Assembly: GCA_001792345.1 (NCBI GenBank)
Contig: MGGJ01000013.1
Coordinates: 21,371-85,370, forward strand
Source of the DNA: Candidatus Woesebacteria bacterium RIFCSPHIGHO2_01_FULL_39_32
GTDB lineage: Bacteria; Patescibacteriota; Microgenomatia; UBA8517
Length of the DNA stretch: 64,000 bases
Direction of reading: 5' to 3'
Part shown: one piece after another, positions 39,841-58,819 of the stretch
Numbering within the stretch: the first letter of the stretch is position 1
Layout: each line of letters begins with the position of its first letter
Translations under genes and position numbers: made by a program
Notes under the pieces: generated by a model
The model's input: the letters and a program-made list of their open reading frames with translations, nothing else
The model's database searches: none
What the model was told of the DNA's origin: nothing

Positions 39841-40333
39841 ACTTTTGAAAGTCTTCAGGATAGGGGTAATTATGATCGGAACGGGGTTTGGAAATGACTT
39901 TCAATTTCGGTTCAACAGAGTGGTAGAATTTTTCGGCTTCAGCATAAGGAACAAATTTATCGTTTTCATTTTGAATACAAAGAATATTTTCAACCGGAAT
40001 TTTTGCTAGGGTGGATTCAACTAATGCATATCTATCTTCTGCAACTACACTTGCGATACCACAAAGGATTACTTTATTTACTTGTGAAGATATTTTTGGA
40101 ATGAGGTTTAGCGCAACAAAAACTCCAACCGATTTTGCAATAATATTTATCTCATCATCAGCGATTTCTCCCAAAATCTTTTCAAGCTCGGATTTAAGGG
40201 ACAAACTTCCGCCTTCCAACCAATGACGCCAGTTATGAACAATTACTTCATGACCAACATTCATCTGACTTGCAATCTCTTCCGCCCATTCACGATTGTG
40301 TTCCGATAATCCCGGCAAAATTACCGTCTTCAT
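39830..40333 (-). CDS. hypothetical protein (possible small alpha/beta-hydrolase, YdeN/RBBP9-like)
   Basis: 167 aa. Weak resemblance only. Confidence 0.3.
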   Translation of the reverse strand: MKTVILPGLSEHNREWAEEIASQMNVGHEVIVHNWRHWLEGGSLSLKSELEKILGEIADDEINIIAKSVGVFVALNLIPKISSQVNKVILCGIASVVAEDRYALVESTLAKIPVENILCIQNENDKFVPYAEAEKFYHSVEPKLKVISKPRSDHNYPYPEDFQKFIA

Positions 40334-41289
40334 TAATTGCCTCCTTTTCCATGAAACGCCTCGTGGATGTCACGCAGATGTTTATGGGTAACGTGGGTGT
40401 AGATTTGAGTTGTTGAGACATTTTTATGTCCAAGCATTTCCTGAACGCTCCTTAAATCAGCTCCAGCCATTAAGAGATCTGTTGCAAAAGAGTGGCGCAG
40501 AACGTGTGGAGTAACTTCTACAGGTAATTTCATTTTTTGACTATACTTTTTGATCATTCTTTGAAACGATCGGGGAGTGAGGCGCATTTTCTCGTCAAGT
40601 GTAGTCGGTTCAACCTTCCCTCTATGACGAATAAAAAGTGGCTTAAACCTGTCTGGGCGAGCTTTTAAATAATCCGAAAGCCATTTGACAGCACGGGTTG
40701 AAAGAAAGACAACACGCGCTTTACCACCCTTTCCGACAATTCCGAACTCACGCCTATCTAGATCAAGTTTATCTTTGTCCAACTTTGCAAGTTCCGACAC
40801 ACGAAGCCCTGTTGAAAATAAAACCTCAAGGATTGCTTTATCTCTTTTTCCTTGAATAGTCGAAAGGCTTGGAGCATTTAAAAGTCGATCAACTTGATCA
40901 CCGCTTAGAAATTTAACTTGCCGCTCGCTAATTTTAGGAAGGTCAATTTTATCAGGTGACATTACCTTGTAGTCATTTTTGATAAGCCAGCGCAGAAATG
41001 AACGAAGCGCAATAACATGATAAGCTTGAGTTTTTCTGCTCAAAGTACTACCTTTTCCATCTGATCGACGCGAAAGATATACCCGGTACTGCCTAACCAC
41101 TTCTGGATTTATATCTCTAAGTTCAAGCCTGATTCCTTCTTTTTCCAGCCATTCAAGATAGCGTTGCAAATAATGTTTATAGTTACGGATTGTTAGGGGA
41201 GAGGAACCTTTTTCAACCTCGAGGTATTCAAGAAACTCACTTATCTTTTTTGCAACCTCTGAAGTCTGAGTTTGGGCAGCTGCAGACAT
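40333..41289 (-). CDS. tyrosine recombinase (XerC/XerD family)
   Basis: HVLRHSFATDLLMAGADLRSVQEMLGHKNVSTTQIYTHV and an N-terminal SAM-like domain. Confidence 0.85.
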   Translation of the reverse strand: MSAAAQTQTSEVAKKISEFLEYLEVEKGSSPLTIRNYKHYLQRYLEWLEKEGIRLELRDINPEVVRQYRVYLSRRSDGKGSTLSRKTQAYHVIALRSFLRWLIKNDYKVMSPDKIDLPKISERQVKFLSGDQVDRLLNAPSLSTIQGKRDKAILEVLFSTGLRVSELAKLDKDKLDLDRREFGIVGKGGKARVVFLSTRAVKWLSDYLKARPDRFKPLFIRHRGKVEPTTLDEKMRLTPRSFQRMIKKYSQKMKLPVEVTPHVLRHSFATDLLMAGADLRSVQEMLGHKNVSTTQIYTHVTHKHLRDIHEAFHGKGGN

Positions 41290-41350
41290 ACTTTAGACAG
41301 TTTACATCGAGTGAAGCGAGATGTCAATATTGTGCGACTAAATAAATTAC

Positions 41351-42052
41351 TTACAATATAGCCGCAACGAAGTTCAGGTTTGCACAACTTCCATTTTCTC
41401 CACTCACCCTAAATAGTCTATCCCGAAACATACCATCAAATCTTCCAATATTAGAAAGTAAAAAAATGTACGCGTCTGTATTTGAAGCAATATCCATTGC
41501 TTGTTCAGGAACGTCCTCAAACATTGCCCCGAGATTAAACATATTTATATTAAAAGATTTCAGAATTCCGCCTTTCATTTCCACAGTGGGCCAAATAGAA
41601 ATATTTTGTCTTGGGATTTTAGGCAATTTTTCCTCATACCATTCATAAGTAGATTTTATTAGTTGAGGGCGCCTGGAAGTTATTACTTTAAAAGGTATTT
41701 TAAGATCAACAAGCTTACTCGTAAACTTTTCCGCTCCCGGGAGTACTTCGGCTTGCATAAGAAAACTGGGATCAAACCAAACGTAATTCTCTAAATCTAT
41801 CGCTCGTTGTTGTGGCCATCCACTCTCAAGGGCCCATTGTCTAACTGCATGCCAATGTCTAATATCAACGTCTCTATAACCAGTTTTAAGTTCACAGTTA
41901 ACAAAATCTAAAACTAAAGTTCTTGTATCACTAATAACACCGTCGTTATCTAGACCTGGATTATTTTCCTTGAAAAATTTTTCTGCTGAGTTATTTACAA
42001 GTCTTTCTATTCTTTCGCGAGTCATGTTTTTAGCAACATGATTATATACCAA
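41351..42052 (-). CDS. HAD-family 5'(3')-deoxyribonucleotidase-like protein
   Basis: TYEWYEEKLPKIPRQNISIW resembles the NT5C-family YEWLxxHFPFIPxQN segment. Confidence 0.4.
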   Translation of the reverse strand: MVYNHVAKNMTRERIERLVNNSAEKFFKENNPGLDNDGVISDTRTLVLDFVNCELKTGYRDVDIRHWHAVRQWALESGWPQQRAIDLENYVWFDPSFLMQAEVLPGAEKFTSKLVDLKIPFKVITSRRPQLIKSTYEWYEEKLPKIPRQNISIWPTVEMKGGILKSFNINMFNLGAMFEDVPEQAMDIASNTDAYIFLLSNIGRFDGMFRDRLFRVSGENGSCANLNFVAAIL

Positions 42053-42139
42053 TATCTTTCTGAATCTATAATAGTTTCGGGTTAAGCATTTCGTAAACCC
42101 AGCATTCCATCAGATCGATTCTAAGACCAGTGTATTAAA

Positions 42140-42940
42140 AAAGGTGGGTAACTTATCGTCTCAACAATAATATTTATTCCCTAATAATTAACACAATCAC
42201 TAAATAACTTAGTAACTTAATCTCTTGTATTTCCGTCGGGGGAGAGGGGTGCAGGACTTGAAAAATAACATATTAACTTCTTCGGTTTATGTTCGGCATA
42301 ACTAATTTTAATAGACTTTTGACGGAGAATAAGAAATAAAATAAAGTTACAAAGTAATTGAGTTACAAAGTAACTAACACAGCAAAAATCATAAAAAAAT
42401 GCTCCACTCTGAGGTCCATTTTACTTACGTCGCAAAAGTATCATTGTACGACATTATAATATTTCCTTCTCTAGGTTCTCTCAATACTTCTAATCAAGCA
42501 ACCGCCCAGAGGATAATTAATCAAAGTCTAACGTTACTAAAAGCATTTTAACGCTAGTTCCCCCTAAGAGAAACGGATAAATATTCACTCACTTAAAAGC
42601 ACTTCTTCGGTAAATATCTAATACGTCGCAATTAGTTATCCACATTGTAAAAGGATCATAACCAAATCTATGCAACTTTTTCATCAGTTTACGTTATGCG
42701 AACATAAATGAGGAGAAAGTAGTCTTTCCAAGGCTGGTAACTATATCATTCTGCATCATCTCTGAGTGCATTTCTCTTCCAGTATCCGCTTCGGTCTTTC
42801 TTTGGAGATCATTGATGTACCGCTGTGTGAAAAAAACCTATAATATTTGTGAAAACATTTCTAGAATACTCATCCTATAATATTAACTATGAGTTACCCA
42901 CTACCCTCTCTCCCCCTTTCTACCTGTCCAGTATTTTTTC
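42140..42940 (+). ncRNA. candidate large structured non-coding RNA (family unknown) in a 926-bp ORF-free region
   Basis: gggggagagggg (42238-42249) complements ccctctctccccc (42905-42917). ggtgggtaact (42144-42154) complements agttacccact (42891-42901). Three cttcgg motifs at 42288, 42605 and 42789. A T-tract follows at 42932-42939. Confidence 0.25.
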
Positions 42941-42978
42941 TTTGCCTGGCTTTCTTTTTTAAAAAAAGTTAGAAAAGG

Positions 42979-43749
42979 TTATCCTCCCCAACGTGTAACT
43001 AAAAACATACCGATAAAAACAGCTGCCCCAATCACAAGGTATTCCCTAACTGTTTGTGAAAAAAGCCGCTCTTCTAAATAAGCCTGGCCTAAACCTAAAA
43101 GCACATAGGTAGATACTGTTAAAAAAAGCGATCCTACTACAATTGACGCAGGCCAGAAAAAAAGCGCAAATGCAATCTCTCCAATCACTAGACTCGTAAT
43201 GACTGACATAGACATCATTTTTTTTGAAAATTGTGTGTCTAAACTTATTGTCCAAAAACCTTGGAAAAATAGAGGAAAAGAACAGAAAGTAATAAGTGGA
43301 ACCAAAAAATACAAAGGCCATTTTAAAGATAATATTGTATCGAATATAAGGAAAAAAGTAAGTAGTGTGAGTACAAAGCCAACTCCCCTTGCGGCCCTCA
43401 TAAGAGCTATCGTTCGAACAGCTGCGACCGTGTAAATATTTACCGTAAGACATAAAGCATAGACCCCAAAACCATAAAGAGCTACAACGGGTATCCGGGC
43501 AAAAATACTTGACGGCAAAAGAAACCAAAAAAGTCCGACTGCAACAGTAAAGAGTATTGGTAAAATTAGTGCCAGTAACGTCATGTTATAAGAAAGCCCT
43601 TCACGAAGAGACCAAGAAAATAAGATAAGTGTAAGTACGCCTAAACTTCCTATGCTCAGAAATCGGTATTGTTGAGGAAAAACCTGGACGGCTATAAATC
43701 CGAGAGATAATAATATTGAAGTAAGTATAAAGCGTCTTCGTTTACTCAT
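42979..43749 (-). CDS. polytopic membrane protein, hypothetical
   Basis: About 8 TM helices. Confidence 0.4.
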   Translation of the reverse strand: MSKRRRFILTSILLSLGFIAVQVFPQQYRFLSIGSLGVLTLILFSWSLREGLSYNMTLLALILPILFTVAVGLFWFLLPSSIFARIPVVALYGFGVYALCLTVNIYTVAAVRTIALMRAARGVGFVLTLLTFFLIFDTILSLKWPLYFLVPLITFCSFPLFFQGFWTISLDTQFSKKMMSMSVITSLVIGEIAFALFFWPASIVVGSLFLTVSTYVLLGLGQAYLEERLFSQTVREYLVIGAAVFIGMFLVTRWGG

Positions 43750-53704: not shown

Positions 53705-53789
53705 GGCCAGGTGCTGGAATGGTAGACAGGCTGGTCTCAAAAACCAGTGGTCATAACAGACCGTGTGGGTTCGACTCCCACCCTGGCCA
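53705..53789 (+). tRNA. tRNA-Leu(CAA)
   Basis: Hand-folded: acceptor GGCCAGG/CCTGGCC, anticodon stem CTGGT/ACCAG, loop CTCAAAA, 17-nt variable arm, T-arm GTGGG-TTCGACT-CCCAC, discriminator A73. No encoded CCA. Confidence 0.85.
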
Positions 53790-54848: not shown

Positions 54849-56177
54849 TCAGTCACTTCGCTTAGTTTCTCTTCCGAAGAACTTCATCTTATCCCCTTTG
54901 AAAACCATTTTTAGGCTTCTTAACGGGCCATTTCGGTGTTTCGCAATATCAAGATTTAGATTCTCGGGATTTTCTTCGTTTTCCTTCCACAAAAATATTA
55001 CAACATCAGCGTCCTGCTCGATACTTCCACTCTCACGAAGATCGGCAAGTTGGGGACGTTTTTCCCCCCTTTGTTCAACAGCTCGGGAAAGTTGCGAGAT
55101 AGCCAGAACGGGAATTTTGAGTTCTCTCGCCAAATTCTTAAGTCCTTGGGATATTTCAGAAACTTCCTGAACCCTATTTTCAAGCCTTCTAGATAAAGCT
55201 AGTTGCAAATAATCAATAATTATTAAATCTACACCAGACTCAACCTGTAAACGACGCGCTTTCGTTCTCATCTCCAAAATGCTCTGTGCCGGCGTATCAT
55301 CGATAAAAATTGGTGCTTCTGCCAGTTCCCCCATTGCATTAGAGAGTTTTGTAAAATCGTCTTCAGAAAGCTTGCCAGTTTTTAACTTCCATGCATCAAT
55401 ATCCGCTTGCACAACCAATAACCTATCCACCAATTCTTCCCTACTCATTTCCAGTGAGAAAAAGCCAACGGGCTGTTTATATTTTACGGCAAGATTCTGA
55501 GCGATATTTAAAGCTAGGGTTGTTTTTCCTATTCCCGGTCGAGCAGCCAAAATAATTAAGTTTGATTTCTGAAGTCCTGCCAAAGTATCATCAAGATCTT
55601 TAAAACCAGTAGGAACACCCCGTAACCCTTCTGCTTGTTTATGAAGCTCATCAAGTCTGTCAAAGCTTTGTGCCAAAGCGTCGCGTACAGGAGTAAAGGC
55701 GTGTTTAATGTGCTTTTGAGTAATTGCAAAGACTTGAGCCTCTGCTTTATCCAGTAGTTCATCTGCTGCCAAACCTTCATCCATTGATAACTCAACGAGT
55801 GTACTTGCAGCTTTCATTAGGGAGCGTTTAGTTGCAGCGTCTTTAACTATCTTACCGTAATGTTCAACGTGCGCTGCTGTCGGAACTTGATTAGCCAAAC
55901 CAACAAGATAACTCACGCCACCTATTTTTTTGAGGATTTTTCTTTTTTTGAGGCGCTCAGAAATTGTTAATACATCAATCGGAGTTCTTTCCTCATAAAG
56001 CTCGAGTGCTGCTAGATAAATCTCTCTATGCCTGTCGTCATAAAAGTCATCGGGTTTTAAAAACTCAGCAATAGCAATAATTGCATCTTTGTCCAATAAA
56101 AGTGCGCCAAGAACTGACCCCTCGGCCTCAGGAGAATGTGGAGGAATACGTACTTGTAGTTGATCCGTAAATGCCAT
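54849..56177 (-). CDS. dnaB: replicative DNA helicase DnaB
   Basis: ARPGIGKTTLALNIA and the RecA-like H1-H4 motifs. 442 aa. Confidence 0.9.
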   Translation of the reverse strand: MAFTDQLQVRIPPHSPEAEGSVLGALLLDKDAIIAIAEFLKPDDFYDDRHREIYLAALELYEERTPIDVLTISERLKKRKILKKIGGVSYLVGLANQVPTAAHVEHYGKIVKDAATKRSLMKAASTLVELSMDEGLAADELLDKAEAQVFAITQKHIKHAFTPVRDALAQSFDRLDELHKQAEGLRGVPTGFKDLDDTLAGLQKSNLIILAARPGIGKTTLALNIAQNLAVKYKQPVGFFSLEMSREELVDRLLVVQADIDAWKLKTGKLSEDDFTKLSNAMGELAEAPIFIDDTPAQSILEMRTKARRLQVESGVDLIIIDYLQLALSRRLENRVQEVSEISQGLKNLARELKIPVLAISQLSRAVEQRGEKRPQLADLRESGSIEQDADVVIFLWKENEENPENLNLDIAKHRNGPLRSLKMVFKGDKMKFFGRETKRSD

Positions 56178-58745: not shown

Positions 58746-58819
58746 GGTGAGTGTAGTGTAGCGGAAACACGCCAGTTTGTGGAGCTGGAATCGGGGGTTC
58801 GACTCCCCTCACCTACCCA
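58746..58819 (+). tRNA. tRNA-His(GTG) with an encoded G-1
   Basis: Hand-folded: G-1, acceptor GTGAGTG/CACCTAC (one A-C mismatch), anticodon stem CCAGT/GCTGG, loop TTGTGGA, T-arm GGGGG-TTCGACT-CCCCT, discriminator C73 pairing with G-1. Confidence 0.6.

Follow-up and report, generated by a model that had tools for sequence, protein, structure and literature searches.

A probable dif locus beside the Xer recombinase gene of Candidatus Woesebacteria

The ORF-free island at positions 42026-42978 of a Candidatus Woesebacteria contig is most probably the dif locus of the chromosome, situated beside its Xer recombinase gene. Positions refer to the window, the whole stretch of 64,000 nucleotides that was analyzed; identical proteins assign it to Woesebacteria assemblies from the Rifle aquifer. 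The assignment is based on the architecture and conservation of a short core palindrome, its occurrence as one copy per locus, the adjacency of xer, the convergence of polar motifs on the site, and the insertion of filamentous, integrase-less prophages at the homologous site in related lineages of the Candidate Phyla Radiation (CPR), a little-studied group of ultra-small bacteria. Full-text literature searches gave no account of dif or KOPS in CPR/Patescibacteria. The initial annotation favored a large structured RNA and offered as a fallback a recombination site beside the XerC/D-type recombinase, with the long-range G/C pairing reflecting a feature of the DNA. The fallback is the reading that held.

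The island is the largest gene-free gap in the window, as first described, and is AT-rich, with 34% G+C compared to approximately 39% in its surroundings. It contains no ORF longer than 50 amino acids. The length originally given, 926 nt, is corrected to 953 nt because gene callers place the start of the neighboring NT5C-like gene at ATG 42025. On the other side, a terminator-like hairpin with a T-run (42958-42992, minus strand) marks the end of the upstream YebC-DUF5656 operon. Searches of the island against phage and plasmid collections with BLAST gave no match, and no canonical parS was present at up to three mismatches. Literature searches for DUF5656 or the core sequence gave nothing relevant.

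The island is kept between the same flanking genes, DUF5656 and xer-gyrA, in more than 40 Woesebacteria/Microgenomates contigs. The gene order p317-TPR-YebC-DUF5656, then 800-1100 nt without ORFs, then xer-gyrA is found in approximately 20 genomes and approximately 22 metagenome contigs. For this genome, the suspicion of a variable junk segment at an integration site is mistaken, since the island is conserved. In alignments of relatives, the conserved parts are short DNA motifs, and these modules are reordered in more distant lineages. A pseudogene or degraded ORF was ruled out; only short blocks are kept in relatives, and reading frames are not.

The most conserved block of the island among relatives is the dif-like core at 42427-42454 on the minus strand, which reads (at)GTCGTACAA-TGATAC-TTTTGCGAC(gt), with the inner 24 bp at 42429-42452. 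This imperfect palindrome of 24-28 bp has inverted arms of 9-11 nt around an AT-rich center of 6 nt and is built like an Xer/dif site. The consensus GTCGYACAA-N6-TTTTRCGAC is invariant across relatives, and the outer bases are partly conserved. With up to four mismatches allowed, a search of the 64-kb window finds the core once, as does a search of every related locus (12.7 kb each). The core is also found across CPR lineages, in more than 120 metagenome matches and more than 120 IMG/VR matches, where the centers are non-random (e.g., TATATC, TATACC, TAATAC). A dif site has two inverted recombinase-binding arms of about 11 bp with 6-8 bp between them, and the core has this form; the junctions of inserted elements break at the edge of its 6-nt center.

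Position 5 of the arms varies independently between the two arms, giving C-A and U-G combinations without covariation. In this the core behaves as a pair of DNA half-sites, unlike an RNA helix. The arms CGCACAA and CGCAAAA have the inner bases CGCA.AA in common with the first 11 nt (GGTGCGCATAA) of E. coli dif, which we take to be the XerC arm. The complete E. coli dif sequence is GGTGCGCATAATGTATATTATGTTAAAT (PMC3025954).

The Xer-type tyrosine recombinase is encoded at 40333-41289 on the minus strand and carries Pfam Phage_integrase and SAM-like domains. Its NCBIfam scores are 261 for XerD and 259 for XerC, both under the cut-off, and 226.4 for XerA_Arch, above the cut-off of 220. The XerS model gives 137.9, short of its cut-off of 267, and no XerH-named family is listed for the protein in the NCBIfam table. 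Scores on DNA invertase models are low. The protein is 63-86% identical in syntenic relatives. By its domains and its scores on the XerD, XerC, and XerA models, this ORF qualifies as a cognate Xer for a dif site, and it is presumed to be the enzyme of the core.

The recombinase gene lies beside its site, as it does in the XerS/difSL and XerH/difH modules. In the window, xer begins 1.1 kb downstream of the core. The NT5C-like gene (41351-42025, minus strand) separates xer from the island; it is a lineage-variable cargo gene that is missing from most relatives. In relatives without it, the distance is 0.4-0.5 kb. The xer promoter (41299-41338, minus strand) consists of a left-arm half-site of the core, GTCGCACAAT (41338-41329), followed by A-TTGACA and, after a spacer of 17 nt, by TAAACT; the gene starts at ATG 41289. 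The half-site abuts the -35 box, and the GTCGCACAAT-ATTGACA arrangement is also present upstream of xer in 11 relatives. Its location suggests autoregulation by Xer.

Polar motifs of the KOPS type converge on the core, as they do around a dif site. In the 81 kb around the site, GGGNAGGG occurs four times on the plus strand and never on the minus strand to the left, and never on the plus strand and five times on the minus strand to the right. The polarity of GGGG has its best breakpoint at 41-43 kb, with a side effect of -0.35 versus a gene-strand effect of 0.19. In 19 related genomes, the counts of GGGNAGGG are 29:1 to one side of the site and 3:23 to the other (p = 2e-11); most copies on the relatives' right flank are in gyrA, where the count is confounded with gene strand, which is not the case for the GGGG control. 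The switch in GGGG polarity is seen in 19/19 related loci and within both gene-strand classes. A set of 21 mixed metagenome loci gives 10:0 and 0:7 for GGGNAGGG, and phage contigs show no such polarity.

The innermost convergent pair of these motifs is the G-run and C-run that were first noticed as a long-range pairing. GGGGGAGAGGGG (42238-42249, plus strand) does face CCCTCTCTCCCCC (42905-42917), but the match is 11/12 and not perfect. GGGGGAGAGGGG is an inner KOPS-like G-run pointing at the core, and most relatives keep it, read on the minus strand as CTCCCC(T). The supposed C-run is, on the minus strand, the KOPS-like G-run GGGGGAGAGAGGG (42905-42917), which points at the core from the opposite side. 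This site is conserved as GGGGAG(R)GGG at the same position in relatives, and its polarity agrees with the flank-wide polarity of GGGNAGGG and GGGG on its side. The second pairing that had been proposed consists of a perfect 10-mer in a 16-nt arm with 88% complementarity (42144-42159 / 42886-42901); its coordinates had been off by one.

GC3 and AT3, the single-base skews at third codon positions, show no sign reversal at the site in the window or in relatives, which counts against dif. GC3 steps from approximately +0.19 to +0.085 in the orientation of the locus, and AT3 is unchanged. The orientation-corrected GC skew has a terminus-type step with a broad optimum at 33-53 kb. Because the third-codon-position skews keep their sign, replication forks may on average meet tens of kb from the site, or they may terminate diffusely. 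The view that the unchanged sign excludes both an origin and a terminus was considered and found too strong, given the polarity analyses. Two observations on genomic position sit awkwardly with a dif site. The neighboring genes are gyrB, gyrA, dnaB, and ssb-rpsF-rpsR, which are origin-proximal in Firmicutes and count against dif. In the complete genome CP055308.1, the locus is at 94% of the record, which is odd for dif if the start of the record is oriC.

Homologous sites in other CPR lineages are occupied by mobile elements that lack an integrase (IMEX), again as expected of dif. In contig L296, an element of 5.4 kb lies between GTCGCACAATATATCTTTTACGAC and GTCGCACAATATATCTTTT|TTGTG. Its genes include those for Zot and a rolling-circle Rep, and none for a recombinase was detected. 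The same pair of sites is found 5.4 kb apart in L329, enclosing DNA homologous to that of L296. L292 has a further junction that ends exactly after the 6-nt center, and L184 represents the empty site in a relative. The inovirus-like prophages of relatives are positioned exactly at the palindrome and are flanked by direct repeats made up of the left arm and the center, and related CPR contigs carry arrays of different elements at the same site. The occupied sites are in a murG-ftsQ context, and the window has no second copy of the site. Other CPR lineages have an integration hot spot at the homologous site. Integration at dif through the host XerCD is established for inoviruses (PMC5666396, PMC7307601), and inoviruses of CPR have been described (PMC6813254).

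A mode of action can be proposed from these features. Each inverted arm of the core (42427-42454) would be bound by an Xer monomer. Strand exchange would take place at the edges of the 6-bp center, as is typical of the tyrosine recombinase family, and would resolve chromosome dimers. The flanking KOPS-type motifs may steer an FtsK-type translocase to the core by analogy with E. coli. Xer may also regulate its own gene, as the half-site by the -35 box suggests.

The closest known system is XerCD/dif with FtsK-KOPS, as in E. coli and B. subtilis. In both, the palindrome is imperfect and consists of 11-bp arms around a 6-bp center that is AT-rich, and the inner arm bases CGCA.AA ... TT.TG are like those of canonical dif. 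Both also have one copy per locus, convergent GGGNAGGG-type motifs, and inserted inoviruses that lack an integrase. The Woesebacteria locus differs in its new arm sequence (GTCGCACAA / GTCGYAAAA), with both arms resembling the first arm of E. coli dif. It probably uses a single Xer instead of a XerC/XerD pair, and the recombinase gene adjoins the site. The core sits in approximately 900 bp of conserved DNA that contains a DnaA box and no ORFs, and the third-codon-position skews step but do not reverse.

XerS/difSL of streptococci and lactococci and XerH/difH of Helicobacter and Campylobacter are single modules of gene and site, with asymmetric, palindrome-like arms. Gene and site also form one genomic module here. 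In contrast, the protein is not XerS, scoring best on the XerD, XerC, and XerA models, and the gap of 0.4-1.1 kb between site and gene leaves room for cargo genes. Archaeal XerA/dif is similar in that the protein scores above the XerA_Arch cut-off and in that the near-symmetric core fits a homomeric recombinase. However, the host is bacterial, and XerA is not known to depend on FtsK, whereas the KOPS-type polarity of the present locus points to FtsK-type guidance.

The plasmid sites cer and psi are also composed of an Xer core flanked by a few hundred bp of conserved DNA with candidate sites for accessory proteins. The left arm GTCGTACAA presumably has CGTACAA in common with the XerC arm of cer, GGTGCGTACAA. 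Unlike cer and psi, the site described here is chromosomal and has conserved boxes on both sides of the core. The IMEX CTXphi and XacF1 resemble the 5.4-kb Zot and Rep element of related CPR contigs, in which no integrase was found and direct repeats of the site are present. The window differs in having only the variable NT5C-like gene, which lies between the island and xer.

Several further boxes of the island are conserved. A perfect DnaA box, TTATCCACA, is located at 42636-42644 on the plus strand, approximately 190 bp from the core. The initial annotation was right to report a single perfect box, which is unique in 64 kb, and had placed it at 42642. The box is conserved as TGTGGATAA in 17/18 aligned relatives. 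Across loci, perfect DnaA boxes show a 13.6-fold enrichment at distances of up to 800 nt from the palindrome, and some CPR lineages have two to three. We know of no precedent for a conserved DnaA box beside a dif site, which is a point against the dif assignment. Two TTTTCAC boxes (42849-42855 and 42827-42833, minus strand) are 22 nt apart and enclose an AATATTATAGG / CCTATAAT element. The boxes show no variation among 13-18 relatives, are spaced 21-23 nt apart in all lineages, and are two to three mismatches off the DnaA consensus. A direct repeat of TGATAYAG with a 10-nt period is formed by TGATATAG and the degenerate TGATGCAG (42741-42748 and 42751-42758, minus strand).

In relatives, the distance from the core to the CCGAA-N6-CCGAAG boxes downstream of it (42280-42296, minus strand) is constant at 154-157 nt. 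In the window, further copies of CCGAAG are at 42605-42610 and 42789-42794 on the minus strand. These boxes are the plus-strand CUUCGG motifs of the initial annotation, discussed below as RNA. A T-rich spacer (42297-42400, minus strand) has a constant length, and its sequence is not conserved. A hidden small gene in the spacer was ruled out, with frame, length, and start all being inconsistent.

Of the alternatives, a mosaic is a possibility with a modest chance of being correct. It would combine the dif core with one or more small regulatory RNAs or promoters, such as a minus-strand transcript of approximately 300 nt from the palindrome, and is compatible with a dif site. The palindrome is closely preceded by the end of a predicted minus-strand promoter, TTGAGA-17-TATTAT, and in many lineages it directly adjoins a TAnnAT resembling a -10 box. 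In relatives, a hairpin followed by a T-run is found approximately 280 nt downstream. However, neither a structure nor the -35 element is conserved, and the terminator hairpin is missing from the window itself.

The phased boxes and the DnaA box are most simply regarded as candidate binding sites for accessory or regulatory proteins. A more elaborate proposal, rather doubtful at present, places the candidate CPR dif at the center of a nucleoprotein locus of approximately 0.9 kb that involves DnaA and other factors and couples dimer resolution or xer expression to the replication cycle. In another form of this proposal, the locus is a datA-like DnaA-titrating element at the point of KOPS convergence. 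Such factors could bind the TTTTCAC pair, spaced by two helical turns, the TGATAYAG pair, spaced by one, the CCGAA boxes, or the spacer of constant length.

It is very unlikely that the island is the chromosomal origin (oriC) or a different locus through which DnaA controls replication, of the datA/DARS type. Such a role would suit the perfect DnaA box kept in nearly all aligned relatives (17/18), the 13.6-fold enrichment of perfect boxes near the palindrome across CPR lineages, the resemblance of the TTTTCAC boxes to DnaA boxes in the opposite orientation, the AT-rich spacer of constant length, and the origin-type genes nearby. However, the island has one DnaA box at up to one mismatch instead of a cluster. 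The KOPS-type and G-run polarity converges, a terminus signature, where an origin has divergence, and the GC skew steps in the direction of a terminus. No dnaA or dnaN was found in the annotated part of the window, approximately 50 kb, or among the genes called on approximately 17 kb of adjoining contig, and the homologous site is a target of site-specific integration. The doubt about oriC already voiced in the initial annotation was justified because the polar motifs converge on the site and do not diverge from it. A DnaA-titrating or regulatory role may exist on top of dif.

The structured RNA that was originally preferred, a plus-strand molecule of GOLLD/ROOL/OLE size, is not supported by Rfam, folding z-scores, or RNAalifold. 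An ncRNA of approximately 700 nt closed by a G-run/C-run helix, on the plus strand or as a minus-strand equivalent, is very improbable. The length of the ORF-free region and its conservation in a streamlined genome would agree with an RNA, and the G/C closing helix is used in the MFE fold of both strands. Weak terminator-like hairpins are present in relatives, 24 on the minus strand versus eight on the plus strand. The strand-specific enrichment of CTTCGG also stands, with three copies on the plus strand only (42280, 42605, and 42789), approximately 0.09 expected, and 0/2000 shuffles reaching three. The 11-mer ACTTCTTCGGT indeed occurs twice, at 42276 and 42601 and not at 42283 and 42600.

However, none of the three CUUCGG motifs, annotated as tetraloop hairpins, is on a stem; local folds have 0 to -2 kcal/mol and contain no tetraloop hairpin. 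Rfam covariance models gave no match to a large structured RNA. In the window and in 15 related loci, gathering and permissive thresholds identified tRNAs elsewhere only; at the island, there was nothing at gathering thresholds and noise at E <= 10 in the window. MFE z-scores are -1.1 for the minus strand and -1.0 for the plus strand. Consensus energies from RNAalifold are 0 to -2.8 kcal/mol on either strand in four alignments of 13-18 homologues. The same program, run on both halves and strands, predicted zero to six pairs, and the only one compensated on both sides is a weak flanking pair of the palindrome stem.

The pairing of G-blocks and C-blocks within a species is not significantly better than between species (p = 0.07-0.10). 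Long inverted repeats as such are no more frequent than chance allows: six pairs of at least 12 nt with up to one mismatch are present where the mean is 2.4, and 10% of shuffles that preserve dinucleotides have as many. The conserved blocks are primary-sequence motifs whose order differs between lineages, a reordering that a folded RNA would not tolerate, and the palindrome arms vary without covariation.

An invertible, phase-variable segment that has the G-run/C-run repeats at its ends and is inverted by the neighboring recombinase, similar to the fim switch, is extremely unlikely: inverted G/C repeats approximately 660 bp apart do lie beside a tyrosine recombinase gene and promoter-like elements are found inside the segment, but 10 assemblies of the same species and more than 40 related loci all have one orientation relative to the flanks, the repeats are explained by the flank-wide polarity of the same motif, and the recombinase is a conserved Xer type with low DNA invertase scores.

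As a dif site, the core GTCGYACAA-N6-TTTTRCGAC together with the polarity of GGGNAGGG provides a sequence-only marker of the dimer-resolution point in fragmented CPR genomes and can be used for checking CPR assemblies. Giant structured RNAs have one false candidate fewer. The approximately 900 bp of conserved non-coding DNA and the perfect DnaA box around dif are a puzzle in a streamlined genome. The core also helps to spot integrase-less prophages and other elements that hijack Xer, and many "viral" IMG/VR contigs with the core are CPR chromosome fragments carrying such elements. The same palindrome is present in high-G+C contigs, where the adjoining genes are unrelated and of the mobile-element type (IS-like, serine and tyrosine recombinases).

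The ORF-free, AT-rich island described in the initial annotation is real. It has no ORF longer than 50 amino acids, has a G+C content of 34%, and is 953 nt long with the start of the NT5C-like gene at position 42025, where gene callers place it. The island is bounded on both sides by minus-strand genes. Upstream is the gene for a DUF5656 membrane protein (42979-43749, minus strand), the last in the YebC operon, and downstream is the NT5C-like gene (41351-42025, minus strand). Past the NT5C-like gene are genes encoding an Xer-type tyrosine recombinase (xer; 40333-41289) and a serine hydrolase, followed by gyrA. The flanking proteins have identical copies on Rifle aquifer Candidatus Woesebacteria (Microgenomates, CPR) contigs, e.g., MGHH01000013.1 (168 kb). 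The motifs first listed for the island are present, but several of their positions were 1-7 nt off.

The core of the island is a palindrome on the minus strand (42427-42454). Its layout is that of dif, the Xer chromosome dimer-resolution site, with arms around a 6-nt AT-rich centre, and CGCA.AA, the inner bases of the core arms, match those in the first E. coli dif arm (sequence as in PMC3025954). In the lineage of the window, the site adjoins xer, whose promoter has a dif left-arm half-site directly against its -35 box. The recombination locus, originally a fallback reading, is supported: the island is most likely a Woesebacterium dif locus lying beside xer, and its conserved non-coding setting is unusually large. 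When metagenome contigs were scanned with GTCGYACAA-N6-TTTTRCGAC, at least 120 matches came up, and a scan of IMG/VR for the palindrome also gave at least 120. Among the metagenome matches listed, the central hexamers are far from random, with TATATC the most frequent (35 times), followed by TATACC, TAATAC, TGTATA, and TGATAC, and about one quarter of the loci have a Microgenomates gene context. Other neighbours of the site include murG-ftsQ, M23 peptidase-gltX, and genes for ribosomal protein L9 or L27; with neighbours this varied, the site is CPR-wide. It always occurs once per locus in the loci examined.

Identity over the 953 nt is 99.9-100% among ten assemblies of the same species. The order p317-TPR-YebC-DUF5656-[gap]-xer-(hydrolase)-gyrA is preserved in approximately 20 other Woesebacteria/Microgenomates genomes, where the gap is 800-1100 nt long and mostly without an ORF. 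The NT5C-like gene is missing from most of these relatives, so the island directly adjoins xer there. The segment between island and xer (41351-42025 in the window) is variable. The NT5C-like gene occupies it in the window and a few relatives, other ORFs of 140-250 amino acids are found in related loci L013, L016, L017, and L032, and several genes are found in L028, L030, L034, and L036. None of these inserts was found to be flanked by a second copy of the site. In GCA_000995445.1, gyrA is called as two ORFs of 408 and 436 amino acids (L008:6014-8633), probably due to an assembly frameshift; other assemblies have one ORF of 876 amino acids.

Alignment of the relatives reveals short conserved islands of primary sequence separated by variable spacers. 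On the window minus strand, these are, in order, a G-run, GGGGAG(R)GGG; a palindrome of the CCTATAAT type; two TTTTCAC boxes 22 nt apart; ACCCGAA; two TGATAYAG boxes with a period of 10 nt; a DnaA box (42636-42644, TGTGGATAA on the minus strand), kept in 17 of 18 sequences; TGTCGCACAATAATACTTTTGCGACG; a purine block; a T-rich spacer whose length is constant; CCGAA-N6-CCGAAG, always 154-157 nt from TGTCGCACAATAATACTTTTGCGACG; CTCCCC(T); a weak hairpin with a T-run; an AAATCGATTT palindrome; and GTCGCACAAT-ATTGACA-N17-TAAACT (41299-41338), immediately upstream of xer. The perfect DnaA box noted earlier is the sole one in the 64 kb, and across lineages perfect DnaA boxes are 13.6-fold enriched near the palindrome. 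By analogy with cer/psi, accessory or regulatory factors may bind the helically phased boxes and the spacer of constant length. In this species only, the T-rich spacer contains a 16-mer tandem duplication, AATAAAGTTACAAAGT / AATTGAGTTACAAAGT (42340-42371).

The island was originally proposed to encode a large structured RNA, and Rfam, folding, RNAalifold, and pairing tests are all against this. The complementarity of the G-run (42238-42249, plus strand) and the C-run (42905-42917) is there, but at 11/12 rather than perfect. The second long-range pairing holds as a perfect 10-mer inside a 16-nt arm that is 88% complementary. Inverted repeats of such quality are within chance (6 pairs vs. a mean of 2.4; 10% of shuffles reach 6). 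CTTCGG does occur three times, on the plus strand only, vs. 0.09 expected, but the hairpins attributed to it are absent, with 0/3 on a stem. The island has no Rfam match at gathering thresholds, with noise only at E up to 10, and none was found beside the homologous element in 15 other loci. The sole Rfam matches in the window are two tRNA genes (53705-53789 and 58747-58817), the first of which is 85 nt long and probably a class II tRNA. The MFE z-scores of the island are -1.1 and -1.0. RNAalifold, run on 13-18 homologues for each half and each strand, gave consensus energies of 0 to -2.8 kcal/mol and at most 6 predicted pairs, of which only a weak flanking pair in the palindrome stem is compensated. 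Pairing of G-block and C-block within a species is no better than pairing across species (p = 0.07-0.10). The fifth position of the palindrome is C or T, independently in each arm, in the aligned relatives, and all four combinations occur, by our own reading apparently independently, among the metagenome matches listed. Arms that vary independently behave as two DNA half-sites, not as a helix. In distant lineages, the modules retain their identity with a changed order. No conserved small ORF is present in the T-rich spacer. The conclusion is that the island does not encode a large structured RNA; small transcripts may arise from it.

Sequence polarity also centres on the dif-like site. The G-run on the left (plus strand) and the C-run on the right (a minus-strand G-run) are both directed at the core. 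Over 81 kb, GGGNAGGG is distributed 4:0 left of the core and 0:5 right of it, with some copies on the template strand of genes. In 19 related genomes the counts are 29:1 vs. 3:23 (Fisher p = 2e-11), and in 21 mixed metagenome loci 10:0 vs. 0:7. GGGG-vs-CCCC polarity has its best breakpoint at 41-43 kb, with a side effect (-0.35) larger than the gene-strand effect (0.19), and it switches in 19/19 related loci within both gene-strand classes. Phage contigs have no such polarity. Convergence of GGGNAGGG on the site is the known signature of KOPS (FtsK-orienting polar sequences) around dif, and an origin would show divergence. An oriC is therefore disfavoured by the converging GGGNAGGG, as well as by the single DnaA box and the lack of dnaA/dnaN among annotated nearby genes. 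A GC-skew minimum had been suggested as a sign of oriC; in the window as in relatives, neither the GC nor the AT skew at third codon positions changes sign at the site. The GC skew there shows only a step, and the AT skew is unchanged; the mean fork-meeting point may be offset or diffuse. In L033 (Blackburnbacteria, JACPEJ010000001.1), GC3 skew is about -0.22 on both sides, with a sign opposite to that of all other relatives; the locus thus does not have one universal orientation with respect to single-base skew. Within ~30 kb of the dif-like site are dnaB, ychF-rpsF-ssb-rpsR, gyrB, and gyrA (window 54849-56177; L212:16967-19106). Because genes of this kind group around oriC in Firmicutes, gene content in this lineage says little about whether a region is origin or terminus.

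Homologous sites carry integrated elements. Contig L296 has two direct copies of the site 5.4 kb apart (L296:2195-7631), one complete and one a hybrid whose match to the complete site is limited to the left arm, the centre, and four more bases. The insert encodes a Zot-like assembly ATPase and a filamentous-phage-type rolling-circle Rep, and no recombinase gene was detected in it. In L329, the same two sites are likewise 5.4 kb apart, and the DNA between them matches most of the L296 element at ~81% identity. The empty site is represented by the related contig L184, where the flanks and site are shared and no insert is present. At further junctions, different left flanks are joined to the same core, and one ends exactly after the 6-nt centre. 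This pattern is that of integrase-less inoviruses, which integrate at dif through host Xer (PMC5666396, PMC7307601); inoviruses are reported in CPR (PMC6813254). The differing left flanks of different elements on one core suggest arrays resembling the ones at Vibrio dif. Such ~5.4-kb inovirus-like prophages, which encode a Zot-like ATPase, a rolling-circle Rep, and DUF2726 but no detected recombinase, occupy the CPR dif-like site in L296, L329, L292, L332, L243, L272, L234, L238, and L223, with murG-ftsQ on one side and a DUF3048 gene on the other. L128 (772-5591) contains three repeats of a 2398-nt unit that bears the core site, with GGTGGAG after it, as well as an HTH (excisionase-like) ORF; this may be a concatemeric assembly of a small circular element.

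Many "viral" IMG/VR contigs with the site (e.g., L295, L250, L273, L247, L261, L269, and L288) are CPR chromosome fragments (ftsQ, murG) and match metagenome loci; small integrated elements are the probable reason for their viral label. In the murG-ftsQ group (L099-L209), the site comes with conserved GAAC-N7-GAAC boxes (such as GAACAAAAATAGAAC), a TTGAC-N17-TATAGT promoter, and a TT(A/T)TCCACA box that is likewise conserved, at about -250 and +430 nt from the palindrome, and a TraG/VirD4-like ATPase gene is on the far side. Among the IMG/VR matches listed, 37 tailed-phage-like contigs (L215-L334, e.g., L317 and L328) have a large terminase gene within ~0.6 kb of the palindrome. A small terminase gene adjoins it in some of these contigs, and ACCCCTGTT iteron-like repeats flank it in several. 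The same palindrome is found beside mobile-element genes in L119, L114, L137, and L132 (54-59% G+C), including a tyrosine recombinase starting 52 nt from the site in L119, a serine recombinase in L137, and an IS-like protein in L132.
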